A program made the translations under genes and the position numbers. A stretch of 31,651 nucleotides of DNA, taken from contig CAYRCN010000001.1 of the NCBI GenBank assembly GCA_964422805.1, positions 1 to 31,651 on the forward strand, written 5' to 3'. The first letter of the stretch is position 1, and the number at the start of each line of letters is the position of its first letter. The notes beneath the pieces were generated by a model that ran no database searches, was not told the DNA's origin, and saw nothing but the letters and a program-made list of their open reading frames with translations. This document shows positions 96 through 30,287 of the stretch, in pieces. Source of the stretch: an uncultured bacterium. Its GTDB lineage: Bacteria; Hydrothermota; UBA3072.

Positions 96-202
96 GCTTT
101 TTGCTTTTCGCATTTAGCTATCAGCTTTAGAAGTTTAGAAAAAATTAATTTGGATTCGTTAAGACTTGGTGAGCCAAGAGCCACCGGCTAAAAGCGAAGA
201 GT
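96..202. repeat. Inverted pair of period-7 GC-phased arrays (imperfect hairpin)
   Basis: Left arm 96-130: gcttttt gcttttc gcattta gctatca gctttag. Right arm 175-202: caagagc caccggc taaaagc gaagagt, roughly complementary to the left arm. Confidence 0.75.
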
Positions 203-210
203 GTAGTTTT

Positions 211-657
211 TTATCCTATATATTTTTTTAGTTCTGTTACAACGCGTGCGGCAACAGCTTTGTTGGTTGCCAGAGCAAAAATAGTGTCGTCTCCGGCGAG
301 TGTGCCGGCAATCCCATCTATTCTGGCATGGTCTATAGCAGTACAGACTGCTTGGGCGTTGCCGGTTTTCGTTTTTATTACAATAATGTTGTTGACATGA
401 GAGAGTTCGACAAGGCCCAATCTAAAAAGAAGATCAAGCCGTTCTTCTCCTCCTTCCACTTTGATTATTCTGTAAGTTCCGTCGCCGATAGGAGCTCTTA
501 TGTAACCAAGTTCTTTCAGGTCTCGAGAAAGCGTAGATTGGGAAATTCTTACACTACACTCTTTCAATCTCTCTTTCAATTCGACTTGTGAATGTATTTT
601 GTTCTCGTTTAAAATGCTTCTTACTACTTCTAATCGCTTATTTTTACTTTTAGACAT
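211..657 (-). CDS. argR: Arginine repressor ArgR
   Basis: 148 aa; winged-helix motif SQSTLSRDLKELG; C-terminal arginine-binding motif GTLAGDDTIF; downstream of argGH. Confidence 0.96.
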   Translation of the reverse strand: MSKSKNKRLEVVRSILNENKIHSQVELKERLKECSVRISQSTLSRDLKELGYIRAPIGDGTYRIIKVEGGEERLDLLFRLGLVELSHVNNIIVIKTKTGNAQAVCTAIDHARIDGIAGTLAGDDTIFALATNKAVAARVVTELKKYIG

Positions 658-675
658 TGTTGTATCCTCGCATAA

Positions 676-2070
676 CTAAAGTTTGGCCATGGAACTTTTT
701 ATAATCTTGCTCGCTCTTTTTATTTGCTCCTTCACGGATTTTTCACCTGTTCCACCGGTCAAATTGCGGCGGGAAAGAGCATTCTTAAAGCTGAGATAAT
801 CATAAATTTCTTCTTCAAACAGAGAAGAGAAATCCTTTAATTTGCTTAAGGGTACTTCATTTAAAGCAGTCTTGTTTTCCTTTGCCCACTTAACAATATT
901 TCCTGTTATTTCATGAGCTGTTCTAAAAGGGATTCCTTTTTCCGTGAGATAGTCTGCTATCTCAGTGGCGAGAAGGGCTGATGAAAGAGCTCGAGCAATT
1001 CTTTCTTTATTTACTTTCAGGGTTTTTAAAACACCGGAGAATATCTCTAGAGAACCTTTAGCAATTCCAACAATTTCGAAAATATGTTTTTTATCTTCCT
1101 GTAAATCCCGATTGTACGAATGCGGAAGTCCTTGACACAGAGACAGGAGAGCTGTGAGATGCCCTATGGCTGAAGCAGCTTTTCCTCTTATAAGCTCTAA
1201 GCTGTCGGGATTTTTCTTTTGAGGCATAATGCTGCTGCCTGTGGCATATTTATCGTCTATTTCTACGAAACCGAACTCATCGGTTGACCAGAGTATAAGA
1301 TCAGATGCATAGCGACTCAAATGTGAAGTTATCATTGTCAGAGTAAAGCTAATAGATATCGGAATATCACGGTGTGCTGTTATATCCAAACTGTTATTGC
1401 TTACCGTGTTGAAACCTAAGTCCCGGGCAAGAATTTGTAGGTCGATAGGGAATCCCGTTCCTGCAAGAGCCGCTGAGCCTAAAGGCATAATACCGCAATG
1501 CTTTAAACCCAGCAGCAGGGATTCTTTATCTCGTTCTATAAGCCAGAAAAGAGAGAGCAGGTAATGGGAGAAAAGAATTGGTTGAGCTTGCTGAAGATGA
1601 GTATAACCGGGTATTATCAAATCTAATTCGTCCTTTGCCATGTCGACGACATTTTTTTCGAGTCCTACAATGTGCCCCAGAACCTCTGAAAGTTCCTTTT
1701 TCAGATAGAGAAGTAAATCTGTCATTACCTGGTCATTACGACTTCGTCCCGTATGGATTTTTTCGCCGACATCTCCTGTGATTTCTGTCAGTCTGCGTTC
1801 TATTGCGCTGTGAATGTCTTCATCGTCCGGTTGTATAGCAAAATTATGGCTCGTAAATTCCTCTTTTATAACTTCAAGAGCGGTTAAAATTTCTTTCGTT
1901 TCTTTGTTTGATAGAATGCCAATCTTATTTAGACCTTGAGCCCAGGCTTTATTTACAGCAATATCTTCGGAGAACAGAATCTTATCTGTCTCTATTGAAT
2001 GACTGAATTTTTCCATTTCTACGGCTGTTTCTTTAGAAAAACGGCCTTTCCAGATTTTTCCTTTTCCCAT
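676..2070 (-). CDS. argH: Argininosuccinate lyase
   Basis: 464 aa; N-terminal WKGRF, HTGRSRNDQ, GYTHLQ, signature GSSIMPQKKNPD, YNRDLQEDK. Confidence 0.97.
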   Translation of the reverse strand: MGKGKIWKGRFSKETAVEMEKFSHSIETDKILFSEDIAVNKAWAQGLNKIGILSNKETKEILTALEVIKEEFTSHNFAIQPDDEDIHSAIERRLTEITGDVGEKIHTGRSRNDQVMTDLLLYLKKELSEVLGHIVGLEKNVVDMAKDELDLIIPGYTHLQQAQPILFSHYLLSLFWLIERDKESLLLGLKHCGIMPLGSAALAGTGFPIDLQILARDLGFNTVSNNSLDITAHRDIPISISFTLTMITSHLSRYASDLILWSTDEFGFVEIDDKYATGSSIMPQKKNPDSLELIRGKAASAIGHLTALLSLCQGLPHSYNRDLQEDKKHIFEIVGIAKGSLEIFSGVLKTLKVNKERIARALSSALLATEIADYLTEKGIPFRTAHEITGNIVKWAKENKTALNEVPLSKLKDFSSLFEEEIYDYLSFKNALSRRNLTGGTGEKSVKEQIKRASKIIKSSMAKL

Positions 2071-2079
2071 TTTTTTTTG

Positions 2080-3300
2080 CTAAAGCTTCCCTTCTTCTTC
2101 GAGCTTTTTTAGCCCTCGTATCGTTAATTGCAAGCCAAAGAGATTAATAAATCCCTCTGCGTCTTTCTGATTGTAAATCTGATCTTCTCCGAACGTAGCG
2201 AAGTCCTCTCTGTACGTAGAAAACTTTGACTTTCGACCTAAAGTAATTATGTTACCTTTATAAAGCTTTAACCGCACAACTCCGCTCACTTTTTCCTGAG
2301 TTTTATCTATAAAAGCATCTAAGGCTTCCTTTAATTCAGAAAACCATAAGCCGTAGTAAACTAACCGTGAATAAAGGTTCGCAACGTCCATTTTATGATG
2401 GAGGGTATTTGCATCAAGTATTATGCTTTCTAATTGTTTATGAGCCTCATAAAGTATAGTCCCTCCGGGAGTTTCATAAACGCCGCGGGATTTAATTCCC
2501 ACAAGACGGTTTTCAACCATGTCAACCATACCGACACCGTGTTTTTTGCCTAATTTGTTTAGTTCGGTAAGCAAACCTACCGGAGATAATTTTTCGCCGT
2601 TGACCGCTACCGGAATTCCTTGCTCAAATTTTATTTCTACGGTTTCGGATTCGTCGGGAGCATCCTCTGGTGATTTGGTAAACCCATAAGCATTCTTGGG
2701 GAATTCATTCCACGGGTCTTCCAGGATTCCTCCCTCTGTACTTCTATGCCATAGATTGGTATCGTTGCTGTAAATTTTTTCCTTTGTAATCGTCGTAGTT
2801 AGTCCGTGCTTCTTCGCATAATCTATTTCGTCTTCTCTGGACTTCAAATCCCACTCTCTCCATGGAGCAATTATCTTTAGTTTGGGATTTAAAGCCTTAT
2901 ACGTTAATTCGAAACGTACCTGGTCGTTGCCTTTCCCGGTACATCCGTGGGCAACCGCGTCTGCTCCCTCTTTTTCTGCTATTTTGACCTGTTCTTTTGC
3001 CGCTATTGGACGCGCAAAAGAGGTTCCCAACAGATAAGTTCCTTCATATATTGCCCCGGCTTTTAGAACAGGGAAAACATAATCCGTGATAAATTCTTCT
3101 TTTAAGTCCACCACATAAGCTTTATCGGCTCCCGAAGAAATAGCTTTCTCTTCAAGCCCTTCTAATTCGTCTTCTTGACCAAGGTCCGCGGTGAACGTAA
3201 TTACCTTGCAATTGTAGTTCTCCTTAAGCCAGTGTAGGATTACGGTTGTGTCCAGCCCTCCAGAGTATGCAAGAACTACTTTTTTTACTTCTTTTTTCAT
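2080..3300 (-). CDS. argG: Argininosuccinate synthase
   Basis: 406 aa; [43 protein letters not shown]; AGGAGG SD. Confidence 0.97.
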
Positions 3301-3330
3301 TTTACCCTCCTAAATAATCGGCAGTGTTTT

Positions 3331-3358
3331 ATAATACCTTATTTTTTTTAATTGTCAA
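3331..3358 (-). promoter_or_regulatory. Sigma70-type promoter for argGHR (TTGACA-16-TATTAT)
   Basis: Minus-strand TTGACA at 3358-3353 and TATTAT at 3336-3331. Confidence 0.65.
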
Positions 3359-3377
3359 GACGGAGTTTTCATTTTTT

Positions 3378-3395
3378 TATGAAAATTTATTCATT
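3378..3395. promoter_or_regulatory. ARG box (ArgR operator)
   Basis: TATGAAAATTTATTCATT has 1 mismatch to WNTGAATWWWWATTCANW and lies in the argG/MFS divergent region. Confidence 0.7.
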
Positions 3396-3475
3396 TGTAT
3401 TTTTTTCGCATTGACTTTTTTCTCTTTAACATTTTAATATAAAAGGATATAGGGGGTATTTATTTTGTAGGGCTT

Positions 3476-3495
3476 TTATGCAAAATTTTGCATAA
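3476..3495. promoter_or_regulatory. Perfect 20-bp palindrome, ARG-box-like (TTATGCAAAATTTTGCATAA)
   Basis: The 14-bp core TGCAA-AATT-TTGCA has ArgR/AhrC operator geometry; 77 nt upstream of the MFS start. Confidence 0.6.
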
Positions 3496-3571
3496 TTTCT
3501 TATATAAAAGGATAGGGTTAATCCTTGACTTTTTACGCATAAAATATAAGTATCTCTTTGGGAAAGAATTT

Positions 3572-4744
3572 ATGAGGCTATTTAAAGATATTCCCGGGAA
3601 CGTAAAAGCGCTGGGTTTTGTAAGCCTGTTTAACGATGCGGCAAGCGAAATGATTTATCCTCTATTGCCTATTTTTCTTACTTCTATTCTGGGGGTTGGC
3701 GCAGGAGCTTTGGGTATTATTGAAGGTATAGCGGAATCAACTGCTAGTCTTCTTAAGTTGTTTTCCGGGTGGTTTTCGGATAAGGTAAGGAAGAGAAAGG
3801 CTCTTATTTTAATTGGCTATTCACTCGCTGCGCTCGGAAGACCTATGATTGCTTTAAGCAGATACTGGTGGCATGTTGCGGTTATAAGGTTCGTAGATCG
3901 TTTGGGTAAAGGTGTGAGGACTTCTCCCAGGGATGCTCTTATTTCGCTGTCTACTCCTGAAGAGATAAAAGGAAAAGCTTTTAGTTTGCATAGAGCGATG
4001 GATCATGCTGGGGCAATAATAGGTCCGCTTTGCGCTATAATCCTCCTGAAATTTGGGATGAGTCTTAAGAGCTTGTTTGCCTGGGCTTTACTCCCCGGAA
4101 TTATAACTGTCTTTATTGTGGTTTTCTTTGTAAGAGAAAAGAAAATCGAAGCAAAAGCAAAGAGTGTAGATTTCAAGTTTTCTATACTCTCAAGAAATTT
4201 TAAAGCGTATCTCCTCGTGCTTATCTTTTTTACTCTTGGTAATTCATCCGATGCGTTCCTAATTTTGAAAGCGAAGGATGCCGGCGTTACAATTTTTCTT
4301 ATTCCGCTTCTCTGGATTGTTCTTCATTTTGTGAAGATGGCGACTTCGATTCCCGGAGGAGAGTGGTCAGATAAGGTTGGAAGACGAAAAGTGATAGTTA
4401 GCGGGTGGATCGTTTACGCGCTTATTTATCTTGGTTTTGGTTTCTCTTCCCGGATATTTCATATATGGATCTTATTTGCTCTTTACGGGATATACTTTGG
4501 GCTTACAGAGGGCGTGGAGAAAGCGTTTGTGAGCGATCTTGTGAGTAAGAAATTTCAGGGTACCGCTTTCGGCTTCTACCATCTGGCAGTTGGGGTCGCC
4601 GCATTTCCTTCAAGTGTAATTTTTGGTTTTATATGGCAAAAATTTGGTTCACTAGTGGCTTTTACGTATGGCTCAGCTCTTGCGGGTTTAGCTTCAATCT
4701 TGCTTTTTTCTTTGGTGAAGGAAAAGAAAAGGCAATTTCAATAG
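3572..4744 (+). CDS. MFS transporter (about 390 aa, about 12 TM)
   Basis: MFS motif A-like GWFSDKVRKRK and GEWSDKVGRRK; DRLGKGVRTSPRDALI. ATG 3572 is preferred over the ORF-track start 3488, which runs through the regulatory region. Confidence 0.9.
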   Translation: MRLFKDIPGNVKALGFVSLFNDAASEMIYPLLPIFLTSILGVGAGALGIIEGIAESTASLLKLFSGWFSDKVRKRKALILIGYSLAALGRPMIALSRYWWHVAVIRFVDRLGKGVRTSPRDALISLSTPEEIKGKAFSLHRAMDHAGAIIGPLCAIILLKFGMSLKSLFAWALLPGIITVFIVVFFVREKKIEAKAKSVDFKFSILSRNFKAYLLVLIFFTLGNSSDAFLILKAKDAGVTIFLIPLLWIVLHFVKMATSIPGGEWSDKVGRRKVIVSGWIVYALIYLGFGFSSRIFHIWILFALYGIYFGLTEGVEKAFVSDLVSKKFQGTAFGFYHLAVGVAAFPSSVIFGFIWQKFGSLVAFTYGSALAGLASILLFSLVKEKKRQFQ

Positions 4745-4822: not shown

Positions 4823-4842
4823 AAATTTATTTATTAAATAAA

Positions 4843-5964: not shown

Positions 5965-5996
5965 ATTTATAAATCAAATATAAATATGGAGGGGAA

Positions 5997-7702: not shown

Positions 7703-7770
7703 TAAACTCCATTTTTGCCCATAGAGAATCTATCGCGGAAAAGTCACTAAAATTCAAAAATCAAATATTA

Positions 7771-8003
7771 GCACTTAGCCATGCGCTTTTGGCTGTTGGC
7801 TTTCAGCTTTTTAATAAAATTATATTGAGGCCAAAGACGAAAAGCCAATAAGCCGGGATGCGGCATTGTAAAAAAAGAAATAAGCAGTTAGAATTTAGAA
7901 TCCCAACCTACCCCAAAAAAATATTTTAACAGCCATATAATACAAAAAAGCTCATTCACTGTTTTTTAGCTAACAGCTAAAGGCTAAAAGCCAAAGGCAT
8001 AGT
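7771..8003. repeat. Cluster of period-7 arrays in both orientations
   Basis: 7771-7812: gcactta gccatgc gcttttg gctgttg gctttca gcttttt. Opposing arm at 7830-7861. 7888-7901: ttagaat x2. 7969-8003: gctaaca gctaaag gctaaaa gccaaag gcatagt. Confidence 0.8.
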
Positions 8004-8015
8004 TTAAAAAACCCC

Positions 8016-8044
8016 TTGACAAATAACATAAATTTCACTACAAT
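8016..8044 (+). promoter_or_regulatory. Sigma70-type promoter of the efflux operon (TTGACA-17-TACAAT)
   Basis: TTGACA at 8016-8021 and TACAAT at 8039-8044. Confidence 0.75.
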
Positions 8045-8047
8045 AAA

Positions 8048-8071
8048 TTTGTATTAATTCAATAATACAAA
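8048..8071. promoter_or_regulatory. Inverted repeat TTTGTATTA-N6-TAATACAAA over the predicted TSS (GntR/YtrA-like operator)
   Basis: Perfect 9-bp arms starting 4 nt after the -10 hexamer. Confidence 0.55.
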
Positions 8072-8130
8072 GTTGGTTTTGTAAATTTGTAGAAAAGAGG
8101 TTTGGTTTATGTTGAATTTTTTTGTGATAG

Positions 8131-8146
8131 TTTTGTATATACAAAA
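8131..8146. promoter_or_regulatory. Perfect 16-bp palindrome TTTTGTATATACAAAA (GntR HutC-type GTMTAKAC core)
   Basis: Self-complementary; lies in the 5' leader of the efflux operon. Confidence 0.5.
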
Positions 8147-8242
8147 AGTTGATTGATTGAAACTTTTTTGTTTACGGGGTCGTCAAACAGAAAAAGAGGT
8201 GAATTTGGCTAAAATTTTTAGATTTGTGAAGGAGGCTAAATA

Positions 8243-9301: not shown

Positions 9302-10533
9302 GAAGGGTAATAACTCAATTGGTTCAGGATTTTAGAGCCTACAAGATGAGGTTCCTGCTGGTAATATTCGGCGTCTCATGGGGAACTACCGCCATTATTC
9401 TTAACATGGCTTTCGGGGTCGGAGTCATGCATCAGGTAAAAAAAGGCCTGAGGGGACTGGGAGAACATATAGGAATACTCTGGCCCGGACAAACAAGTAT
9501 CCCATATAAGGGCCTCGGTATAGGCAGAAATATTAGATTTGTTCCGGAAGATGCGGAACTCTTAAAAGAAAGAATTGATGTCATTGAACTAGCCTCTCCA
9601 GAGTATATTCACTGGGGACAGCCGATAAAGTACGGAGAACTGCTCCGACAGGCAAAAGTCTGCGGAGTAAATCCTTCATATGGAATAATGAGGTCTATAG
9701 AAGCCGGGAAAGGGAGATTTCTTAATAAGCTGGATATTGAAAAGAGAAGAAGAGTTATTTTTCTGGGAAACGAAGAAAAAGAAAAAATATTCGGGCAAGA
9801 AGACGCTGTTGGCAAAAGAGTCCTTTTAAACGGCATCCCTTTTACGGTTATCGGCGTAATGAAGAAAAAAATACAGACAAATTCTTACTCCGGAAGCGAT
9901 CAGAATACAGTCTTTATTCCCTACTCGACATTTAAAACAATGTACGGCTGGCTGTACATAAATAATATGGTATATAAACCCATCTCTGCAGGTCTGTCAA
10001 AAGAAGCACAGAAAGAGATTAGCAGGGTTCTTGGAGAAAAATACAAATTCGACCCGGAAGATAAAGAAGCTCTCGGAACATGGGATGTGGCAGAGCAAGA
10101 ACAATTAATGAATAAAATGACCAAGGGGATTGAATTTTTTCTATCTATGGTTGGCGCTATGACTTTGCTTATTGCCGGAGCGGCTATTGCAAATATTATG
10201 TATTTCATAGTGGATGAGAGAACGAGAGAAATAGGAATTAAACGCTCCGTAGGAGCAAAAAAAAGCGATATCCTTCATCAATTCCTCCTGGAATCACTCT
10301 TACTTTCAACAATCGGCGGAATATCCGGACTTCTTTTTAGTTTTTCGATCGTATGGCTCTGCTCTTTTATACCTGAAACGGGCATATTTGAGTTCATGGG
10401 TAAGCCTACCATGTCCTACGAGATACCCATAATAACGGTTATCGTTCTTCTTGTCATTTCGCTTTTCTCTGGATATTTCCCCGCAAAGAAAGCGGCAAAC
10501 CTAAAACCAGTGGAGTGTTTGCGCTATGAGTAA
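9298..10533 (+). CDS. ABC transporter permease (MacB/FtsX type)
   Basis: 411 aa; TM1, periplasmic MacB-PCD region, GIANIMY-like segment and ERTREIGIKRSVGAKK, C-terminal PAKKAANLKPVECLRYE. Confidence 0.92.
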   Translation: MRRVITQLVQDFRAYKMRFLLVIFGVSWGTTAIILNMAFGVGVMHQVKKGLRGLGEHIGILWPGQTSIPYKGLGIGRNIRFVPEDAELLKERIDVIELASPEYIHWGQPIKYGELLRQAKVCGVNPSYGIMRSIEAGKGRFLNKLDIEKRRRVIFLGNEEKEKIFGQEDAVGKRVLLNGIPFTVIGVMKKKIQTNSYSGSDQNTVFIPYSTFKTMYGWLYINNMVYKPISAGLSKEAQKEISRVLGEKYKFDPEDKEALGTWDVAEQEQLMNKMTKGIEFFLSMVGAMTLLIAGAAIANIMYFIVDERTREIGIKRSVGAKKSDILHQFLLESLLLSTIGGISGLLFSFSIVWLCSFIPETGIFEFMGKPTMSYEIPIITVIVLLVISLFSGYFPAKKAANLKPVECLRYE

Positions 10534-11204: not shown

Positions 11205-12434
11205 GTGATTTTTCTATTGTTGCTGGCATTTAATTTAACATTAGAAGATGCGATAGCAATGGGATTGAAAGAAAGCCCGATATATCTAAAAGCCAAAAAA
11301 AGCTTTATAATTGAGCAAAAAACGAATTCATTCGTCTACTCCGAACTCTTACCTGAGATAAACGGAAGTTACAGCTGGATTAAAACCCAAAGCGAAACCG
11401 AGGGAGTAACTTTTTTTGACACAACCAGCGGATACAGTCTTTCTGCCAGCTGGGAGCTGGGTCCCGGAGAATTATTTAATTCTTTCGGTACTCATTACAG
11501 AAACAGTTCAGCTTATTATTCCTTTGTTGAGGTTCAAAATAGCGTAATATACGATATTGCTTTTCAATATCTCAAAACATTGATGATGCAGAAATTACTT
11601 GAAAGCAGAAAGGCGGGAGTGGAGAGAACAGAAAAGAATTTAAACTTGATAGAAGAGAAGAAAGCGCTTGGTCTGGCTTCGAACGCTGAAGTTCTAAAAG
11701 CGAAGGTCGATTACTTCCAATCGAAGATAAATCTACTTGAAACGAAAAAACAGGCGAGGGTTTCCGCCTTGATGCTAAACAATATTTTAGGCTTAACAGC
11801 AAGGGATTCGCTGGAGCTTGAAGAACCTCAGGTTGAATTTGAAATTCCCTCAAAAGACTCGATTCAATTCATGGCAATGGGAACTGACCCTCTATATAAT
11901 AAATATAAGTCGGAATACAGTGCCGCAAAATACGATCTATTAGGAGGTGCAACGGAGGATCTCTTTTCTGTTTCGATCTTCACGGATTTCCAGCATGCAG
12001 GAGAAGAATTCCCAAGTTCCTCTGTTTTAAGGGATAATTATGATTACTCGATTGGATTATCTATAACTGTACCAATATTTACCGGTTTTTCGAGATTTAA
12101 CAAATACACAATCAACAGACTGAAAAAGGATTTAGCAGATATAAATTTGCGGGATAGAGAGAGAGAACTTACCGTTGCGGTAGAAGATGAATATTTAAGC
12201 TATCGAGAAACAGTAGAAAAACTTGATCTTGCCGAAGCAACTCTTGAATTCGCCCGCGAAAGTCATGATGCCACCAACGAGAGATACACCCTTGGAGAAG
12301 CCTCAGTGATAGAATTTCTGGAAGCAGAAGAAGATTTGCTTGAAGCAGAGTACTCAATGACACAGGCCCGGTTCGACTGGTATTTATCCGTGTATAAGAT
12401 TAAAAGATTAACAGGAATATTAACAAAAGAATAA
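11205..12434 (+). CDS. TolC-family outer membrane efflux protein
   Basis: 409 aa; LTLEDAI start of the OEP fold, repeated helical halves, ERYTLGEASVIEFLEAE; GTG start with AAGGAGGT SD. Confidence 0.88.
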   Translation: MIFLLLLAFNLTLEDAIAMGLKESPIYLKAKKSFIIEQKTNSFVYSELLPEINGSYSWIKTQSETEGVTFFDTTSGYSLSASWELGPGELFNSFGTHYRNSSAYYSFVEVQNSVIYDIAFQYLKTLMMQKLLESRKAGVERTEKNLNLIEEKKALGLASNAEVLKAKVDYFQSKINLLETKKQARVSALMLNNILGLTARDSLELEEPQVEFEIPSKDSIQFMAMGTDPLYNKYKSEYSAAKYDLLGGATEDLFSVSIFTDFQHAGEEFPSSSVLRDNYDYSIGLSITVPIFTGFSRFNKYTINRLKKDLADINLRDRERELTVAVEDEYLSYRETVEKLDLAEATLEFARESHDATNERYTLGEASVIEFLEAEEDLLEAEYSMTQARFDWYLSVYKIKRLTGILTKE

Positions 12435-13536: not shown

Positions 13537-13564
13537 TTGACAAATTCTACATTTGTAGTACAGT
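13537..13564 (+). promoter_or_regulatory. Sigma70-type promoter for the DUF5916-blaI-blaR' unit (TTGACA-16-TACAGT)
   Basis: TTGACA at 13537-13542 and TACAGT at 13559-13564; overlapped by the BlaI operator. Confidence 0.65.
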
Positions 13565-13581
13565 ATACTACAAATGTAGAA
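13545..13581. promoter_or_regulatory. Double BlaI/MecI/CopY operator: 16-bp perfect inverted repeat containing two TACA-NN-TGTA boxes
   Basis: TTCTACATTTGTAGTA-cagta-TACTACAAATGTAGAA; boxes at 13548-13557 and 13569-13578, 21 bp apart. Confidence 0.85.
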
Positions 13582-15889: not shown

Positions 15890-16267
15890 ACGGGTTTAAC
15901 AAAAGCCGAATGGCAAATTATGAATGCTTTATGGAAAAATTACCCGGCATCTGTCAGGGATGTAATCGGGCATCTTGATGGAGATGTGGATTGGGCATAT
16001 ACGACAGTCAAGACAATGCTGGACAGGTTGGTTATAAAGGGAATACTTAAAGTGAACAAAAACCGTAACGTGAGCATCTACGAACCAATCGTTTCTCAGG
16101 AAAAAACGCGTCAGGCAGCTATAAAATCTTTTGTCAACCAGGCTTTCGACGGGGCAATAGGCACTTTAATGCATTATATCGTTGCCGAAGAAGAGCTATC
16201 AAAAAAAGAAAGAGAAGAATTGGTACGTATTCTAAAAGAGGAAGAAAAAAATGATCGAACAAATTAA
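15890..16267 (+). CDS. blaI: BlaI/MecI/CopY family repressor (probable start ACG 15890; first ATG 15920)
   Basis: LTKAEWQIMNALW, WAYTTVKTMLDRLVIKG, FVNQAFDGAIGTLMHY..EELS. The conserved N-terminal helix lies upstream of the first ATG. Confidence 0.88.
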   Translation, partial: TGLTKAEWQIMNALWKNYPASVRDVIGHLDGDVDWAYTTVKTMLDRLVIKGILKVNKNRNVSIYEPIVSQEKTRQAAIKSFVNQAFDGAIGTLMHYIVAEEELSKKEREELVRILKEEEKNDRTN

Positions 16268-16409
16268 TGCACTAAGTATAGCCTGGTGGAGCTGGATGAG
16301 TGGAATGTTTTGGCAGGTAAGCCTTCTTATAATCCTCATAAGCGGTATCGGCTTACTCCTACGCAGGTGGGTATGGCCTCAGGTTGGGTATGCTTTGTGG
16401 TTCAATTAA
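16251..16409 (+). pseudogene. 5' remnant of a BlaR1/M56-family sensor-protease
   Basis: 52 codons: MIEQINALSIAWWSWMSGMFWQVSLLIILISGIGLLLRRWVWPQVGYALWFN*. Overlaps the blaI end by 17 nt. Matches the first TM/RYALW region of M56 proteins; no HExxH. Confidence 0.75.
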
Positions 16410-16429
16410 TTTTTGTAGTGGGGAAGGGA

Positions 16430-16471
16430 TTCTGTATTCTGTCTTCTAAATTCTTAGTTCTATTTTCTATA
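16430..16471. repeat. Six TTCT-phased heptamers
   Basis: ttctgta ttctgtc ttctaaa ttcttag ttctatt ttctata; the last unit contains the aldolase stop codon. Confidence 0.85.
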
Positions 16472-17423
16472 TCAAATCAAGACACTTTTCGTAGAAATCT
16501 CTGTAGTCCGTCTTTGATGGATCTTCATTGTTGAGTTTAAGAAACTCCATTGCATCTCTGGGATGTAAATTCAATATCCCGGCTACCATATAAGGAATAT
16601 TATATCCCCATGTAATTTCTTTCTGTAGGGGCATGATATGTTTTCCTATAACTTCCAGGATTGGCCTTATATCAAATTTCGGATTTTTGAGAAAAGACAT
16701 CAAAAGCTCCAGAGGGCAGTTACCTGCGGCTCTTCCGATTCCATAAAGCGTACCATCTACGTAGTTCGCTCCCCTTATTATACCCTGTATTGTATTGGCA
16801 AAGGCGAGCTGCTGATGATTATGACAGTGTACACCTATTTCCCTGTCTTTTATGTATTTTTTGTACTTATCATAATAAAAATCTATATCTTCACTATATA
16901 GAGCCCCAAAACTGTCTACAATATATACCGCAATTGTTTTTGTTTCTTCTTGTATTTGTTGTAACGCTTCGTCCAACTCCCAATCCACTGCGTGTGAAAT
17001 TGCCATAACGTTTATTGTCGCTTCATAACCGTTGTCGACCGCAGCATTAGCAGTTTTTATTGCCGTATCGATGTCTTTGACATAAGTAGCAACTCTGATG
17101 ATATCTACGGGGCTTCCTTCTCTTGGCATTATATCGTCTAATGTGCTCTTATGTGCATCCATCATCACTGAAAGTTTAGTTTCGGTTTCGATACCATCTA
17201 CAATTTTTTTAAGGTCTTCGTCGTTGCAGAATCTCCAGGGACCGTATTCATCCGTAGAAAACATCTCCTTACTGTTTCTATAGCCAAGCTCGACAATATC
17301 TACACCCGCTTCACATACGGCTTTGTAAACAGCCCTTACAGTTTCGAACGGGAACTTTGAATTATTCATCAGCCCCCCGTCTCTTATAGTACAATCAACA
17401 ACTGTTATTTCCGGTCTATACAT
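16467..17423 (-). CDS. HMGL-like / DRE-TIM metallolyase (aldolase catalytic domain; 4-hydroxy-2-oxovalerate aldolase / pyruvate carboxyltransferase-like)
   Basis: 318 aa; DCTIRDGG, metal-binding HCHN, DGTLYGIGRAAGN; AAGGAG SD. Confidence 0.82.
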   Translation of the reverse strand: MYRPEITVVDCTIRDGGLMNNSKFPFETVRAVYKAVCEAGVDIVELGYRNSKEMFSTDEYGPWRFCNDEDLKKIVDGIETETKLSVMMDAHKSTLDDIMPREGSPVDIIRVATYVKDIDTAIKTANAAVDNGYEATINVMAISHAVDWELDEALQQIQEETKTIAVYIVDSFGALYSEDIDFYYDKYKKYIKDREIGVHCHNHQQLAFANTIQGIIRGANYVDGTLYGIGRAAGNCPLELLMSFLKNPKFDIRPILEVIGKHIMPLQKEITWGYNIPYMVAGILNLHPRDAMEFLKLNNEDPSKTDYRDFYEKCLDLI

Positions 17424-17485: not shown

Positions 17486-17588
17486 GAGTATGTTCCGGAA
17501 CAATGTTTTGGTTGGGAAAAAGATATAATTAAAAAAGGGGGGTAGCTATGTGCATTCTGTGGTAAAAATGGGGGTTGGGGTTTGCCTC

Positions 17589-17616
17589 TTGACATATGTG
17601 GTAATGAAATTATACT
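17589..17616 (+). promoter_or_regulatory. Promoter upstream of the Zn-ribbon/comM cluster (TTGACA-16-TATACT)
   Basis: Hexamers at 17589-17594 and 17611-17616. Confidence 0.7.
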
Positions 17617-17719: not shown

Positions 17720-17929
17720 GTGGATTTACCTATGGAATATCCCAAATGTCAAAAATGTAATTTTGGCGTGCTTATCCCCCTATCGGATTACGGACAGGGT
17801 GGTGCATCAATACCATACAAAGCATGGGTATGCACAAATCCGGATTGTCATTTTCACATCCGAATAGACAACGGAGAGCTCAGTTATGGTACGGGTATCG
17901 GTGTAAGCCAAAAGCAACAAAAGAGTTAA
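17720..17929 (+). CDS. Small putative Zn-ribbon protein (CxxC-N24-CxxxxC)
   Basis: 69 aa; CQKC...LIPLSDYG...YKAWVCTNPDC; strong GGAGGAGG SD before GTG (ATG 17732 is an alternative start). Confidence 0.75.
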   Translation: MDLPMEYPKCQKCNFGVLIPLSDYGQGGASIPYKAWVCTNPDCHFHIRIDNGELSYGTGIGVSQKQQKS

Positions 17930-24689: not shown

Positions 24690-26339
24690 TTAACCGCTTG
24701 TAATTTTATGTAGATTTTCGGCGATTTCAGCTGTTTCCTGTGAAGTTGTAGAGAGTTCTTCGACTGAAGCCGACAACTCTTCTATAGCTGCTGATAATTC
24801 CTCGGAAGACGCGGCGTTTTCTTCTGCTATTGCCGCAATATTTTCAAGCGCTTCCGTAATTGTATTGACTTCCTCTTCTCCTCTTTTGTTGATTTCGGCA
24901 ATCTGTCTAATCCTTTTTGTTATATGATTTATCTCGGCAGCAATGTCTTTCAAAAAATCAGCGGATTTTAGAGAGGTTTCTTTGCCTTTATTTACTTCTT
25001 CCACTGTTTCCTGTGTTTTTTGTGTTACCAAATTTATCACTCCGGAGATTTCATTTGTTATCTCAGAGATTACTCTGGTAGCTTCAGAAGATTGATTTGC
25101 CAGTTTTCTTATTTCATCTGCGACCACAGCAAAACCTCTTCCTGTTTCTCCGGCTTTTGTCGCTTCTATTGTCGCGTTAAGTGCAAGGATGTTTGTTCTT
25201 TTGCTTATTTCTCGCACTTTTTCTGTTATTCCCAGTATTTCTTCCGAATACCGCGCTATGCCCTGAATTACTTCTTCCAATTCATGAATGGTGTTTGTAA
25301 CATTATCCATGGCAACCCTAACTGCTTCTGAAGATTTTTTGCCTTTTCCTGAAAGTTCAGAAATGTTCTCGGAAGAACTTAAAGTTTCCTGTGCGGAATC
25401 TAAAGATTGACGGACGACCGTTAGAGCTTTTTGGGACATTCCGGAGGCAATCTGTGATTCCTGTGCCTGTTTTTCCGAAGCGTGCGCAATTTGCTCCATA
25501 GTAGAAGAAACCTCTTCCGCAGAGGCAGTCATCTCCTCGGCAGAAGCAGAGAGTTCTTCGGCCTGGGCAGAGATCCTTTCGGCAACCTGACGAATTGAGT
25601 CCTTATCCTTCTCTAATTTATCCACGAATTGATTGAAGGAAGCAGCCAGTTCTTTGCTTTCCGCAGTAAGAAACTTTTCGGATATTCTGACATGAATATC
25701 CGCTCTTCCTTCGGCTATGTTTTTTAAATTTTCCCTCAATTTGTTTAAAGGACGGAAAAAATAATTCAATAGTTCTAAAGTTCCAAGGAGAGAAATGATA
25801 GTAATGACAAGAAGAATTTTAAGCAAAGCTGAGGAAAGTCTCTTTGTAACCGCAAAAGATTCCTGAAGTGCTATTCCTGCTCTGAAAACTCCGATTACTT
25901 TGTCTGTCCTCATTCCTCCGTAAACGGGAAAATAACAATCTAGGAGTCTCTGGTTTTCTATTTCCTTTACGGGTGCAATTTCTTCTCCTTCTTTTATTTT
26001 AGCCATAATTTCTTCCGGCAGCGTATCAGTTATTTGTATTTTGCCTATTTCGGTAAATACATTCCCGGATAAATCGTATACTTTTAAATATAAAATATCT
26101 TTTCTTTCTGAAAGCTCTGAGAGTGATGACTCAAGAAAAGAAGGATTTTTAGAATTCAAACTGAATTCTAAAGTGGCATTAATTGAACTAAGTATGTTTT
26201 CACCTCTGCTTTTTAGAAGAGTGTTGAACTCTGATTTTACTATATTATGAACTAATATTAAAGTCAGTATGTTTAACGTTAAAATTATAGCAATTAAAAG
26301 TACGGAAATCTGAACTTTTAATGAATTAAATTTTATCAT
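24690..26339 (-). CDS. Methyl-accepting chemotaxis protein
   Basis: TM-sensor-TM-HAMP-signalling architecture; [36 protein letters not shown] 26339 follows AGGAGG (the ORF-track TTG start at 26354 reads through the SD). Confidence 0.9.
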
Positions 26340-26356
26340 TAGACCTCCTAACAATA

Positions 26357-26385
26357 ATGTTACAAAAATTAGATTTGAAAGTCAA
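26357..26385 (-). promoter_or_regulatory. Probable MCP promoter (TTGACT-17-TAACAT)
   Basis: Minus-strand hexamers at 26385-26380 and 26362-26357, downstream of an intrinsic terminator. Confidence 0.5.
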
Positions 26386-26433
26386 GAGTCCAATTTATAA
26401 CTTTTGCTGTTTTTCAAAAATTTTGAGCATAAT

Positions 26434-26463
26434 AAAAAAGGGCCGGGTTTCCCCAGCCCTTTT
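26434..26463 (-). terminator. Intrinsic terminator after glyA-aminotransferase
   Basis: Minus strand GGGCUGGG-GAAA-CCCGGCCC followed by U6. Confidence 0.88.
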
Positions 26464-26481
26464 CCCATCTTGCAATTCCCC

Positions 26482-27549
26482 CTAACCGATGATGTCTTCA
26501 ATTTCTCCTAAAAGCCAATTGATTTCTTCGACAGTCAAATCTCCCATATGCGCAATTCTAAATGTTTTCTCTTTTAAGTTGCCGTATCCGTTAGAAATGT
26601 AAGCTCCTCTCTTGGATAGTTCCTCGTTAAGACCTTTAATTGAAATATCTTTGGTGTTATTTATGCAGGTTACTGTGGGCGAAAGATTGTTTTCATCTGC
26701 AAAAAGCGAAAAGTTTTCTCTTGCCCAATTTTGTACTATAGAAGCCATCTCGGAGTGTCTTTTAAAACGGTTTTCTACACCTTCTTGATTTACTATTTTC
26801 TCCAGTTGATAATTAAGAGCGGCTATCAAATTAAGAGCAGCTGTTATAGATGGCTGTTTTGCCTTATCCCAGTATTTTTTATATTGCAAGAAGTCAAAAT
26901 AGTATCCTTTGTCTTCCGCCTCGGCGGAACGCTTCATTGCTTTTTCGCTTACAGATGCAATTGCCAGTCCCGGAGGGAGAGCAAAACACTTTTGTGACGA
27001 AGCAGCGACATAATCGATACCCCAATCGTCGACTCTTATCTCTGCCCCCGCCATCGAAGACACAGCATCGACACATAAAATTACATCAGGATATTTGCTT
27101 ACTACTTCTGCAACTTCTTTAAGGGGATTCATGACACCGGTTGATGTCTCATTATGTGTTATAAATACGGTGTCAAATTTTCCGGTTTTTAGTTTTTCTT
27201 CTATATCTTCGGGGGAAATACCTTTTCCCCATTCGTATTCTAAAACTTCAAAATCTTTTTGACAGCTTTTTGATATTTCTGCCCATCTTTTACCGAAAGC
27301 TCCGCATACCGAATGAAGAGCTCCTTTTTTTACGCAATTCCTAACCGCCGCTTCCATCAAACCGGTTCCCGAACAGGTTCCTATAATAATAAAATTATCC
27401 GTAAAAAGAACTTTTTGAAGTTTTGTTATGGTTTGATCCATCAATTCCGAGGTTTCCGGCATTCTGTGACCGAACATTGGGAAATCCATCGCTTTTCTAA
27501 CGTCTTCCCTGACTTCTGTCGGGCCGGGGATAAATAATTTCCTGTACAT
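26482..27549 (-). CDS. Class-V PLP aminotransferase (alanine-glyoxylate / serine-pyruvate family)
   Basis: 355 aa; LFIPGPTEV, FGHR, THNETSTGVMN, DAVSS, PLP-Lys SSQKCFALPPG, FRIAHMG. Confidence 0.9.
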   Translation of the reverse strand: MYRKLFIPGPTEVREDVRKAMDFPMFGHRMPETSELMDQTITKLQKVLFTDNFIIIGTCSGTGLMEAAVRNCVKKGALHSVCGAFGKRWAEISKSCQKDFEVLEYEWGKGISPEDIEEKLKTGKFDTVFITHNETSTGVMNPLKEVAEVVSKYPDVILCVDAVSSMAGAEIRVDDWGIDYVAASSQKCFALPPGLAIASVSEKAMKRSAEAEDKGYYFDFLQYKKYWDKAKQPSITAALNLIAALNYQLEKIVNQEGVENRFKRHSEMASIVQNWARENFSLFADENNLSPTVTCINNTKDISIKGLNEELSKRGAYISNGYGNLKEKTFRIAHMGDLTVEEINWLLGEIEDIIG

Positions 27550-28811
27550 CAGTCCTCCTTTCTTCCTTGTCTGATTTCTGGGTATAAAGGAAATTCTTCT
27601 GCTATTTCTTTAACTTCTCCTCTTACTTCTTCTATTACTTTTTCATCGTCGATTTTTGTAAGAACTTTATCAATCAATTGTGCTATTTTCTTTATTTCTT
27701 CTTCTTTTATTCCCCTGGAAGTTAAAGCAGGGGTACCAATTCTTATACCGCTTGCTATAAATGGTTTTTCTTTATCAAAAGGAATCGTATTTTTATTTAC
27801 GGTTATTTTTGCCTTATCAAGGGCTTCCTCAGCCTGTTTGCCTGTGATGCCCTTACTTTTGACATCTACAAGGATTAAATGAGTATCAGTACCATCGGCA
27901 ACAAGCCTCCATCCTAGTCTCTTAAACTCTTGCTCGAATGCTTTAGCATTCAATTTTATCTGATGCTGGTATTTTTTGAATTCAGGAGAGAGAGCTTCCT
28001 TGAACGCAACGGCTTTTGCAGCAATCGTATGCATATGGGGTCCACCCTGCAGGCCCGGGAAAATGGCTTTATCTATAGCTTTTGCCCATTTCTCCTTGCA
28101 GAGGATTATTGCGCTTCTCGGACCTCTGAGCGTTTTATGCGTGGTGGTCGATACCGCCTCCGCATAAGGTATTGGCGAGGGATGTTCTCCGGCGACAATA
28201 AGACCTGCAATATGGGCAATATCAGCCACGAGGTATGCCCCTACCTCGTCACAAATTTCTTTGAATTTATCCCAGTGAAGTGTCCTTGGATAGGCGGACG
28301 CACCGGTCATAATCAGCTTAGGCTTTTTCTCTCTCGCCAGTTTTAGCAGTTCATCATAATTTATCTGCTCAGTTTTAGGATCTACGGTGTACTGAAAAGT
28401 TTCCCAAAAAGTGCCAGTAAAGCTCACTTTATAACCGTGTGAGAGGTGTCCGCCATGCGAAAGAGAAAGTCCGAAAAACAAATCTCCCGGTTCGAGTAGA
28501 GCCGAGTATATTGCCATGTTAGCCGGGACTCCGGAGAGAGGTTGGACATTTACGTGTTCTGCGCCAAATAGTTTCTTGGCTCTTTCGATAGCGAGATTCT
28601 CTACAACATCCATCCATGTGCAACCACCGTAGTATCGCTTGCCTGGATAGCCTTCCGCGTATTTGTTTGTCATTACCGAACCCATAGCCTCGAGCACAGC
28701 AATTGACACAAAATTCTCGGAAGCTATAAGCTCGAGATTATCGTGTTCCCTGGTGGCTTCCCCAATTATGGCTTTGTAGACTTCAGGGTCCGTTTTAAAT
28801 AGTTTATCCAT
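27549..28811 (-). CDS. glyA: Serine hydroxymethyltransferase
   Basis: 420 aa; [51 protein letters not shown]. Confidence 0.97.
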
Positions 28812-28852
28812 GTTTTAATACCCCTCTTTTTAAAATTTCAGGTTCTGCCACT

Positions 28853-28880
28853 ATTATATTTTGATAATTTTCCTTGTCAA
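28853..28880 (-). promoter_or_regulatory. glyA promoter, perfect TTGACA-16-TATAAT
   Basis: Minus strand TTGACA aggaaaattatcaaaa TATAAT. Confidence 0.85.
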
Positions 28881-28913
28881 GTCTAAAAACCCCTCCTTAC
28901 CAAAAATTAATCT

Positions 28914-28939
28914 CACACAGAGACACAGAGGACACGGAG
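28914..28939. repeat. Three degenerate ACACAGAG units (8-9 nt period)
   Basis: cacacagag acacagag gacacggag; no inverted partner seen nearby. Confidence 0.55.
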
Positions 28940-29039
28940 TCACTCCACTCTCAACCGTCTAATTTATTTTGTTTTTTAACTCCACCCCAACCAACTAAAA
29001 AGTTAAATCTGGAGTCCAAACACTTCTTAACAAACACTC

Positions 29040-29067
29040 TTGACATTAGCTTATTTTCCGCTACCAT
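29040..29067 (+). promoter_or_regulatory. pfkA promoter (TTGACA-16-TACCAT), predicted TSS at the ATG
   Basis: The -10 ends at 29067 and the ATG is at 29074; no SD. Confidence 0.75.
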
Positions 29068-29073
29068 AAATAT

Positions 29074-30045
29074 ATGAAAAAAATAGGGATCGTAACACCC
29101 GGAGGTGACGCTCCGGGGATGAATACGGCGATCGGAACTGTCTTGAGACTTTGTAGAAATGAAACGGGAGAGCTAATTGGTATTAATGACGGATACAGTG
29201 GTCTAATAAAAAAAGATTATTTCGATTTTTCCAAGACCCGTTCCGATACAATCATGGGGGTAAGTGGTACCATACTACATTCGGCAAGAATGCCCTCATT
29301 TAAGCAGGAGAAAGTTGTAAAAGAAGCAGCAGAGAATCTTTTAAAAGAAAAAATAGAAGGACTTATTGTTATCGGGGGCGACGGTTCTTTTAAAGGGGCA
29401 ACGTCTCTTAATAAACATTCGGGAGTGCCTGTGGTGGGTATACCCGCCTCGATTGATAACGACATCTATGGGACTGACGAAACAATAGGATTCGATACAG
29501 CCTGCAATACTGCTCTTGAGGCGATTAACAAAATTAAAGATACGGCTATATCTTTCGAAAGAATTTTTGTCGTCGAGGTAATGGGGAAGAAAAGAGGTTT
29601 TCTTGCACTTGAGGTAGGGATAGTTTCTGGGGCAGATGCAATTCTAATTCCCGAAGTAGAATCACCTATTTCGGAAATAGTTGAAGGACTTAAAAGAGAG
29701 AAGTTGAAAGGGCAAAATGATGCGATAATAGTTATGGCGGAAGGTGTAGAGGGGAAGGAAAAAATCCCTTCTTTGATAGAAGAAAAAACCAAGTGCTCTA
29801 CCAGAAGATCGTCTCTCGGTTATATACAAAGAGGAGGAGCGCCGACAAGAAGAAGCAGAATGCTGGCGGTCGAGTTCGCGAGTCACGCTTACGAATTAAT
29901 AAAAAACTCTCCCACGAGACCGGTAATGATTGGGCTCCATGGTGAAGAAATCACAGCAATGGACCTCGAACAGTCGGTTGACGGGCATAAAGAAATAGAT
30001 TTCGAAAGATATAAACTACATAGACTTTTATCAAACATTTACTAG
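29074..30045 (+). CDS. pfkA: ATP-dependent 6-phosphofructokinase (PfkA family)
   Basis: 323 aa; GGDAPGMN, GGDGS (Gly, ATP-type), PASIDND, GFDTA, LGYIQRGG. Confidence 0.9.
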   Translation: MKKIGIVTPGGDAPGMNTAIGTVLRLCRNETGELIGINDGYSGLIKKDYFDFSKTRSDTIMGVSGTILHSARMPSFKQEKVVKEAAENLLKEKIEGLIVIGGDGSFKGATSLNKHSGVPVVGIPASIDNDIYGTDETIGFDTACNTALEAINKIKDTAISFERIFVVEVMGKKRGFLALEVGIVSGADAILIPEVESPISEIVEGLKREKLKGQNDAIIVMAEGVEGKEKIPSLIEEKTKCSTRRSSLGYIQRGGAPTRRSRMLAVEFASHAYELIKNSPTRPVMIGLHGEEITAMDLEQSVDGHKEIDFERYKLHRLLSNIY

Positions 30046-30110
30046 ATTAGGTGTTAGGGTTAAGCCTGACTACCTCCTGCGGATGCAGAAAATTGTTTTG
30101 TTCCTACCTG

Positions 30111-30287
30111 AATATAAATTAAATATCAAAAATTAAAAAGTAAAATTACAGAGTAAAATGCAAAAATATTTCTTCCTGTGACTGTAAAGAAAAAATGTTT
30201 GTGTTATTGACATAATTTGCTGTTTTTTGATTTTATTTTTTAATTTTAATTTGTCATTTTCCATTTTGATATTTGATTTTTACATTC
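30111..30287. repeat. AT-rich inverted pair of approximately period-7 arrays (long imperfect hairpin) between convergent genes
   Basis: Left arm aaattaa atatcaa aaattaa aaagtaa...aaaatgcaaaa. Right arm ...tcatttt ccatttt gatattt gattttt acatt. An 11-nt AAATATCAAAA/TTTTGATATTT exact pairing. Confidence 0.75.

Follow-up and report, generated by a model that had tools for sequence, protein, structure and literature searches.

The stretch of DNA described here (the window) comprises 31,651 nucleotides (nt) of contig CAYRCN010000001.1 from an uncultured bacterium. Its G+C content is 38.7%, and several of its intergenic spacers contain arrays of degenerate units which repeat with a fixed period of seven nucleotides. 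The gene order starts with argR, argH and argG (minus strand), followed by a major facilitator superfamily (MFS) transporter gene, gcvT, gcvH and gcvPA. The middle part contains a HlyD/MacB/ABC/TolC efflux operon, genes for DUF4097 and CBM9/DUF5916 proteins, blaI, an HMGL-like gene (minus strand), comM and a gene for a peptidase-MA/PD40/Omp85 protein, and the window ends with coaE, mscS (minus), a methyl-accepting chemotaxis protein gene (minus), an aminotransferase gene (minus), glyA (minus), pfk and a Wzy-like gene (minus).

The nearest genomes to the window were metagenome-assembled genomes of candidate division WOR-3. The identity of their GcvPA proteins to that of the window was 89% for locus L001 (JAFGHJ01), 87% for L002 and L081, 81% for L003 and L082, 77-80% for the group of L004 and L083-87, 75% for L005 (CAZSEX01) and 64% for L006 (Stahlbacteria); genomes with a GcvPA at least 77% identical to that of the window are referred to as the subclade. 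L002 and L164 belong to CAZQNI01, L003 and L168 to CAYQMH01, and L004 to CAZGHN01. Three contigs from two Joint Genome Institute (JGI) samples (L161, L162 and L163) were 99.9-100% identical to the window and represent the same population, independently assembled. The junction stretches 84-210 and 30046-30320 were letter-identical in those of the three contigs which cover them. Since the independent assemblies match the window across both covered junctions, the arrays are not assembly artefacts.

The original prediction, made from the letters of the window, had placed period-7 arrays with an invariant phase marker at four gene junctions (96-130, 7771-7812 and 7969-8003, 16430-16471, and 30111-30287), and all five arrays were recovered. 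A scan for in-phase runs, defined as at least four identical non-A/T dinucleotides in register and thus a direct test of the phase marker, added two arrays which had been overlooked (7876-7903, AG x4, and 17569-17603, TG x5). The arrays and the sequences belonging to them were the following.

96-130: left arm of junction J1, five GC-phased T-rich heptamers (GCTTTTT GCTTTTC GCATTTA GCTATCA GCTTTAG; Tandem Repeats Finder (TRF) period 7, GC x5 from 96), between a 138-aa gene ending at 83 (plus strand) and argR ending at 211 (minus strand).
173-207: right arm of J1, GC-phased A-rich heptamers, complement of the left arm in the same 7-nt phase (173-96 = 77), with T6 at 207-212.
5965-5996: gcvT-gcvH spacer, holding only a stub (TAAATCAAATAT) of the left arm of the AT-type element (see J4), where L081 has the full 190-nt element.
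7750-7770: AT-type heptamers AAATTCA AAAATCA AATATTA, a 19/19 nt match to the start of the AT-type element found at the same site in L081/L002.
7771-7812: array A of junction J2, six GC-phased T-rich heptamers 3' of gcvPA, 90% identical in L001.
7829-7866: array A' of J2, complement of A; A/A' form a predicted 33-bp imperfect hairpin whose loop of 16 nt is 100% identical in L001.
7876-7903: AG-phased array, AGAAATA AGCAGTT AGAATTT AGAATCC.
7966-8003: array A'' of J2, five GC-phased A-rich heptamers (originally placed at 7969-8003), inverted with respect to A; shorter by 8 nt, about one unit, in L001.
16430-16471: junction J3, six TTCT-phased heptamers over the stop codon of the HMGL-like gene (minus strand), without a partner in the window.
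17569-17603: TG-phased array, TGGGGGT TGGGGTT TGCCTCT TGACATA TGTGGTA, upstream of comM in a divergent spacer, overlapping a promoter-like TTGACA.
30046-30066: two to three TTAGG-type heptamers directly after the pfk stop codon, orthologous to a five-unit array in L165.
30111-30292: junction J4, AT-type foldback of about 185 nt with arms of A-rich/T-rich heptamers at 30111-30166 and 30223-30282, member of a dispersed repeat family.

The phase marker thus varies by locus (GC, TTCT, TG, AG, AAAAT) while the period does not. In the pooled intergenic DNA of the window (3.0 kb) the autocorrelation at lags 7, 14 and 21 exceeded that of dinucleotide shuffles with z values of 4.9, 3.8 and 3.2, respectively; the coding DNA showed period 3 alone and no lag-7 excess. 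The top six lag-7 windows across the 31.6 kb were exactly the arrays predicted originally, and all of them were intergenic. Nine in-phase runs were observed at period 7, against a mean of 0.20 in shuffles (maximum 2 in 300), and periods 5, 6, 8, 9 and 10 gave 0-1 each, the single one at period 6. TRF called period 7 at 95-128, 7968-7995, 16429-16447 and 30225-30280. The unit-to-unit matches were 70-91% and only 2-4 positions per unit were invariant, so the units are not near-perfect copies. A chance or low-complexity effect of AT-rich intergenic DNA could be argued from the AT-rich arms of J4, which score at other lags as well (other-lag mean 12-15 of 35). However, this explanation is refuted by the dinucleotide-preserving shuffles, which never came near the observed period-7 statistics, by the 0-1 runs at the other periods, and by the recurrence of the signal in six related genomes together with its lack in the next relatives. 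A scan of the window for tRNA and tmRNA found nothing, and Rfam 15 gave no match at the gathering score; at relaxed thresholds the top scores were 12-20 bits, where 39-229 are required, and no family was assigned.

The lag-7 signal is restricted to the lineage. Its intergenic z was 4.7 in the window genome, 3.8 in L001, 9.0 in L081+L164, 3.7 in L082+L168, 5.3 in L004 and 4.6 in L083/84/86 (the L083-86 group additionally shows lag 8-9 signals), and it was absent in the next relatives (z 0.2 in L005 and -1.3 in L006-9). With a fixed detector the clade yielded 2.0 period-7 matches per 10 kb, and any other period or group at most 0.94. In about 190 kb of clade DNA, 20 of the 23 period-7 matches lay in the 17 kb of intergenic DNA and 3 in the 165 kb of coding DNA. 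The intergenic ones were distributed as 6 in 3.0 kb of convergent, 12 in 8.9 kb of tandem and 2 in 5.5 kb of divergent spacer, the last class being depleted, and spacers holding a gene 3' end contained 18 of the 20. Three of the four junctions named originally are indeed convergent. The assertion that all arrays sit just 3' of genes holds as a bias and not as a rule, since arrays were also found in divergent spacers, at 17569-17603 and, 1 kb to the left of the window, at 5178-5222 of L162.

At the same junctions the arrays are replaced from species to species. The 3' junction of gcvPA carries GC-type arrays in the window and L001, the AT-type foldback in L002/L081, an AAATCAG-type array in L004 and 8-9-nt repeats in L083-87; in L003/L082 there is no array, and 57 nt alone separate the gcvPA stop codon from the conserved hlyD promoter. 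In the window the junction between pfk and the Wzy-like gene has the AT foldback and two or three TTAGG units; at this junction L165 has TTAGGnn x5, L168 AGTnnnn and L004 GTCCnnn, and L164 has a 42-nt spacer without an array despite a 95% identical PFK. No paralogous matches to the GC-, TTCT- and TG-type arrays were found in the clade DNA. This turnover bears on the idea that an abundant nucleic-acid-binding protein which reads a 7-nt register per subunit or domain (a cold-shock, S1, HutP-like or nucleoid protein) would bind the arrays at many sites. A fixed period in which variable positions separate short invariant markers resembles protein-binding-site arrays, the signal is lineage-restricted, and binders have been proposed for the TAACTGA repeats (PMC4679880) and for the Nostoc TTTTGAA repeats (bioRxiv 10.1101/2022.06.06.494920). 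However, one protein could not read all of the markers (GC, TTCT, TG, AG, AAAAT, TTAGG, AGT, GTCC), the turnover of arrays at a given gene is complete between sister species, and no candidate protein was identified here; we consider this explanation very doubtful.

In the case of the AT-rich element at 30111-30292, the repeat is truly dispersed. Both arms of J4 match L081 at 9413-9595 and 11374-11537 with 85-92% identity (E down to 3e-21), and the copies occupy three non-orthologous sites across two genomes, namely the window at 30111-30292, L081 at 9409-9601 (between gcvT and gcvH) and L081 at 11363-11540 (after gcvPA, the same site as in L002). The gcvT-gcvH spacer of the window has only 32 nt where L081 holds the full element. 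A profile search found no copies beyond these in 169 loci, and neither the AT type nor the other element type had matches in viral contigs. The arms are 49-56 nt long and 71-80% complementary, with about 56-65 nt between them and no open reading frame (ORF), so that terminal inverted repeats, small size, the lack of an ORF and copies at non-orthologous sites are all found together, as in transposable elements of the miniature inverted-repeat type (MITEs) and foldback elements. The identity of the copies (85-92%) is well above the roughly 65% seen at four-fold sites of flanking genes when the window is compared with L001, which is about as distant as L081, and thus points to recent movement, homogenisation or constraint.

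At the gcvT/gcvH site L081 has 176 extra nt with the 7-nt direct repeat AAATGGA on both sides. The 'empty' sites of the AT type (5970-5981 and 7757-7768), however, already hold the first 20-25 nt of its left arm. With this stub and only three copies, transposition, truncation and conversion anchored on A-rich heptamers are not separable, and the J4 orthologues in the relatives cannot be aligned. The original prediction had taken all of the arrays for one dispersed element or the scars of a mobile cassette, and dispersal holds for the AT type at J4. That every array derives from one non-autonomous element or cassette system, which sits at gene junctions and carries or removes genes, would be in line with the three dispersed copies, the long inverted arms without an ORF, the 7-nt direct repeat around the extra DNA of L081 and the coincidence of array edges with indel and rearrangement edges described below. 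Against it stand the lack of paralogues of the GC-, TTCT- and TG-type arrays in the clade DNA, units and markers which vary by locus, and unrelated arrays at the same junction in sister species. Moreover, the window showed neither a transposase nor an integrase, none of its genes is enclosed as cargo by an inverted pair, the blaI/ORF82 insert has no flanking inverted arms there, and the left-arm stub fits truncation or conversion equally. Such a common element is improbable.

Inverted pairing was found at three loci of the window (104-118/187-201, 87% complementary; 7785-7819/7964-7998, 74%; 30120-30168/30234-30282, 80%), and J2 has the A/A' hairpin besides the A/A'' pairing. Thus the prediction that arrays usually occur as inverted pairs stood for J1, J2 and J4 and failed for the array at 16430, which is partnerless in the window, unlike its orthologue in L002. 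The J1 hairpin has a folding energy of -31 kcal/mol (fold z about -1.9 to -2.3) and T6 after the stem. The fold z of J2 A/A' was -2.3 in the window and -2.6 in L001 in the mRNA sense, against -1.2 and -1.5 in the antisense, and that of J4 was -3.4. Between the window and L001, 84 of 96 positions of the J2 A/A' hairpin are identical (87.5%), including all 16 of the loop, while the four-fold sites are identical at 0.70 in gcvPA and 0.63 in hlyD (about 65% in the flanking genes). The 11 substitutions spare 33 of the 33 predicted pairs, one being compensatory and four of wobble type. L002 replaces the entire A/A' segment.

These values are the basis for reading the arrays as hairpins, in RNA (or single-stranded DNA), that are under selection at the 3' ends of genes and would serve as bidirectional terminators or mRNA stabilisers with the heptamers as a by-product of stem growth. 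The concentration of intergenic matches in spacers with a gene 3' end, the T6 after the J1 hairpin, the folding of J2 above shuffles on the sense strand in both genomes, its intact pairs and its conservation, and the fold z of J4 all speak for this explanation, and the AT foldbacks read an A-rich and then a U-rich arm on both strands, which would be the layout of a bidirectional terminator. However, the three AT-type copies compared had 0 compensatory changes and 6 broken pairs, and the copy between gcvT and gcvH in L081, where a terminator inside the operon would be harmful, folds at the level of shuffles (z -0.4, -0.5); both facts argue against selection on the AT-type structure. In J1 and J2 the U-rich arm comes first and no U-tract follows the J2 stem, the arrays at 16430, 17569, L165 and L004 are partnerless, and the orthologous junction is empty in L003 and L164. 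A GC-rich terminator (GGGCTGGGGAAACCCGGCCC, then TTTTTT) lies after the aminotransferase gene at about 26440-26475 (minus strand); therefore the organism also uses canonical intrinsic terminators, which likewise counts against the arrays having been selected for this role. We regard selected hairpins as a possible but unlikely source of the arrays.

Shuffling the order of units in the arms was marginal (p about 0.02) for J2 A/A' and J4 and not significant for J1, A/A'' and both L081 copies. The strand asymmetry of the hairpin energy was rejected as evidence for an RNA role of the AT type, being largely compositional (shuffles shift equally), while J2 retains a modest sense-strand advantage. 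As for intrinsic terminator features, J1 has a long imperfect stem with T6, in J2 the scan accepts nothing but sub-hairpins of 5-6 bp inside array A, J4 is without a GC-rich stem, and U-tracts are missing outside J1. The RNA hairpin or terminator function proposed originally is therefore plausible but weakly supported, with fold z values of -1.9 to -3.4, one compensatory change at J2 and none in the AT copies. J2 A/A' suggests itself as the best case for a functional array. Since this case consists of two sequences, the segment is replaced in L002 and U-tracts are mostly lacking, a role at RNA 3' ends was treated as secondary.

Several length differences of a fitting size were observed. L001 has 8 nt less in A'' than the window, roughly one unit, and a 7-nt indel separates AT-type copies. 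The near-identical genomes L084 (9830-9870) and L086 (11375-11460) differ by 47 nt inside a 9-nt repeat array (GGATTAACA), with the 8-nt direct repeat ACAGGATT on both sides, and this difference reads as a short-repeat-mediated indel. Judged by their sequence, the unit-sized indels, like those with direct repeats of 7-8 nt on either side, are indicative of duplication and deletion by strand slippage. Larger differences have their edges at the same places, as had been predicted. The variable segment after gcvPA extends from 7770 to about 8007 and is bounded by arrays A and A''. The segment of blaI and an 82-aa ORF (ORF82, 16286-16534) is missing in L002 with its right edge at 16429, and the segment from the CBM9 gene to blaI is missing in L001 with its right edge at 16463, so that both edges lie at or within the ends of the J3 array. 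In the L004 group pfk stands immediately after gcvPA; the 21 kb from 7703 to 29037 of the window form a block, and both of its ends lie in repeat-rich spacers.

The two synteny breaks named originally did not hold as such. In none of L001-L005, L081-L087 and L006 was a gene of the size of gcvPB observed immediately behind gcvPA, and a break specific to the genome of the window is not supported. The supposed truncated blaR1 is ORF82, for which no Pfam match was found even at E up to 10 and no BlaR1 signature. ORF82 follows blaI, runs through the TTCT array and overlaps the HMGL-like gene at its 3' end, and is unlikely to be a genuine gene.

The explanation which we favour, with confidence that goes about half-way, is a lineage-wide process which makes and unmakes 7-nt tandem copies, with the arrays as its local trace. 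Units of 7 nt would be duplicated and lost in unconstrained DNA, chiefly just downstream of genes, and slipped-strand duplication and deletion during replication would be the most likely mechanism. The period would be set by the mechanism and the unit supplied by whatever local sequence stood there, hence a constant period with units and markers differing by locus and species; a fixed period with changing units is what a period-setting mutational process predicts and a shared element does not. Point mutation would erode the arrays to a 2-4-nt phase marker. Arrays would often be copied in inverse orientation, giving foldback pairs capable of forming hairpins, and the 185-nt AT-rich foldback has also reached unrelated loci, which may have happened through transposition of the MITE kind or through ectopic conversion with A-rich heptamer stubs as anchors; any 3' RNA hairpin role in termination or mRNA stabilisation would be secondary. 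The strongly non-coding, divergent-depleted location fits relaxed constraint, and the same bias is seen in Xanthomonas (PMC4692102). Being repetitive and variable, the arrays would mark indel and rearrangement sites between neighbouring genomes.

Several points weigh against slippage as a sufficient cause. It leaves the loss of the signal in the close relatives L005 and L006-9 unexplained, which hints at a lineage-specific factor, and it does not account for the inverted pairs. The J2 hairpin and loop are better conserved than four-fold sites, which suggests some constraint. The left-arm stub at the 'empty' sites makes a clean insertion indistinguishable from a deletion, and the sequence base consists of about 42 kb of the window genome and the about 190 kb of clade DNA. 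The onset of the signal is sharp, since it is present at a GcvPA identity of at least 77% and absent in L005 at 75%. A lineage-specific enzyme might make 7-bp staggered cuts or duplications, with the arrays as its footprints and the AT foldback as its mobile substrate; the candidates would be a transposase or integrase cycling at 3'-junction hot spots and leaving tandem 7-bp target duplications, or a dedicated repeat-adding polymerase. We consider such an enzyme quite improbable, but if true it would cover three facts at once, the fixed period with local units, the sharp phylogenetic onset and the patchy occurrence of arrays across phyla.

Whatever their origin, the arrays are an example, in a new lineage, of the long-known bacterial heptamer repeats. 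According to the account in PMC4692102, heptanucleotide short tandemly repeated repetitive (STRR) sequences were described in Calothrix in 1990 (Mazel et al. 1990). The accounts in PMC4679880 and PMC4692102 have heptanucleotides as the top class of long simple sequence repeats (SSRs) in most genomes, with polymerase slippage as the proposed origin (Mrazek, Guo and Shah 2007). The heterogeneous GGGANTN arrays of Xanthomonas lie in intergenic DNA and are depleted between divergent genes (Rehm et al. 2015, PMC4692102), and 70-75 cases per genome of two nearby arrays in convergent (inverted) orientation were reported; between sister species the length and sequence of the arrays vary while gene context and pair type are kept, and either strand is transcribed (PMC4692102). 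TAACTGA arrays of fixed unit occur in Beggiatoaceae, Cyanobacteria and Bacteroidetes, and binders of the S1, Csp or CsrA type were proposed (MacGregor 2015, PMC4679880). In Nostoc, TTTTGAA arrays alter reporter expression and an unidentified binder was proposed (bioRxiv 10.1101/2022.06.06.494920).

The window arrays resemble STRR sequences in their tandem 7-nt intergenic units, the many loci per genome and some stem-loop pairing. However, STRR sequences consist of few defined, near-perfect units and belong to cyanobacteria, whereas the host of the window is WOR-3-like and its units are degenerate and locus-specific (70-80% in TRF). None of the STRR heptamers CCCCAGT, TTGGTCA (STRR2) and CAACAGT is repeated in the window arrays; GGCTGTT/AACAGCC is only loosely like CAACAGT. 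The kinship with STRR proposed originally thus holds as a resemblance of class, while the unit TTTGTCA (30250-30256), assigned there to the STRR2 type, is one base off TTGGTCA and, as a lone unit, carries no weight. With the long SSRs the arrays share the preference for period 7 over neighbouring periods, the intergenic bias, the patchy phylogeny and slippage as the proposed origin; SSRs are, however, near-perfect, while the window arrays are old and decayed with a 2-4-nt in-phase marker left, and standard SSR scans would miss most of them because of this strong degeneracy.

The GGGAATC arrays of Xanthomonas and the GGGGA(C/T)T arrays of Nostoc are likewise heterogeneous, divergent-depleted and variable between sister species, and form inverted pairs, which were found here at J1, J2 and J4 in the window and at J3 in L002. 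They differ in their G-runs and G-quadruplexes, and in the clade of the window the unit itself changes between species; since the units GCTTTTN, TTCTNNN and AAAATCA lack GGG runs, G-quadruplex formation does not apply to the window arrays. The TAACTGA repeats are also intergenic heptamer arrays, and their long arrays in some Bacteroidetes coincide with gene rearrangements, but their unit is a single fixed one, most of them stand a short way upstream of start codons, and inverted repeats are very rare among them. The AT type resembles MITEs and foldback elements in being non-coding, about 185 nt long, built of long imperfect inverted arms of short tandem units and present at non-orthologous sites; it differs in that a target-site duplication is not demonstrated, there is no known partner transposase, the left end stands at 'empty' sites, and the copies are three. 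Repetitive extragenic palindromic (REP) sequences, bacterial interspersed mosaic elements (BIMEs) and intrinsic terminators are similarly extragenic, 3' of genes, hairpin-capable and sometimes between convergent genes. The window arrays, however, have long, AT-rich, imperfect stems, no conserved 20-40-nt palindrome, no GTAG/CTAC head and a U-tract at J1 only; REP/BIME was rejected on the lack of a conserved palindrome or head motif. CRISPR arrays, iterons and integron attC sites were rejected as well, the period being too short, the units not conserved and an integrase lacking. What distinguishes the window arrays within the known class is the host lineage, the strong degeneracy, the heterogeneity of units between loci and the inclusion of a dispersed foldback.

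Period-7 arrays were also noticed outside the clade. The distant gcvPA loci L010-L080 had 67 period-7 matches in 1.0 Mb, with lineage-specific units, in Chlorobiaceae, Latescibacterota, Planctomycetota, Bacteroidota, Sedimentisphaerales and another WOR-3 (for example L039 17587; L040 11368-11520 and 17687-17810; L036 13359/13435 and 16727; L044 8678/8731; L066 3379-3600; L053 3489-3600; L071 439/8464; L043 11495-11610). Inverted pairs occur among them in L036 (GGATTTT/AAAATCC) and L055. By eye, many of the distant units appeared to rotate to ACTNNNN (ACTCGTC, ACTCATC, ACTCGAT, ACTGACC, ACTTCTG, ACTTAGA), as the cyanobacterial heptamer units also seem to do. A second family of short repeats (CACAGAG, CGCAGAG, CACGGAT and related units, period about 8-10) was observed in spacers of the clade, at 28915-28943 in the window, 11395-11500 in L004, 11360-11530 in L005, 3775-3800 and 3905-3935 in L083, where it forms inverted pairs, and 5235-5285 in L162. 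It stands upstream of pfk in the window and L004 alike.

A few other features lie beside the arrays. The stretch from 8004 to 8242 comprises the promoter of the hlyD operon at 8016-8044 (TTGACA-17-TACAAT), an operator palindrome at 8048-8071 that looks perfect (TTTGTATTAATTCAATAATACAAA), and a leader of about 170 nt. This region is 92-93% identical to L001, far above the four-fold sites, and alignable with L002, L003 and partly L005; it had no Rfam match and could represent a conserved leader with a regulatory role. The CBM9/DUF5916 gene is preceded by a promoter-like TTGACA and, after this, a long palindrome, ACATTTGTAGTACAGTATACTACAAATGT (13537-13580), which is probably an operator. In blaI (15890-16267, missing in L001 and L002) the Penicillinase_R domain aligns from profile position 1 only with a start at 15890 (ACG); the first ATG (15920) costs about 9 N-terminal residues, and there is no canonical start between the Shine-Dalgarno-like AAGGAGGG and 15920, so that translation may begin at a rare start codon, or the gene may be in decay. 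An unannotated 69-aa ORF (17720-17929) with two CxxC pairs (zinc-ribbon-like, CQKC...CTNPDC), preceded by GGGAGGAGG, lies within the 523-nt spacer upstream of comM. The string AAGC(G/A)AAGAGTGTAG is shared by 4131-4172, inside the MFS gene, and 187-207 in the right arm of J1; the MFS copy is conserved at 7772 of L001, and the sharing is probably a coincidence in a Lys/Arg-rich loop. The motif AAAATCAAATAT was considered as a recurrent recombination site and rejected, since its 3 matches in the window were equalled in 11 of 100 shuffles and are not significant alone; two matches in L046 were, by eye, coding DNA.

Heptanucleotide repeats have been in the literature since the descriptions of 1990 and 2007. 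The clade offers a natural experiment on how they arise, with different decaying arrays at the same junctions, a close lineage free of arrays and one foldback that moved between loci, and public metagenomes of the clade permit tests of slippage, of mobility and of a lineage-specific determinant. In practice, the arrays flag the edges of indels and rearrangements in these genomes.

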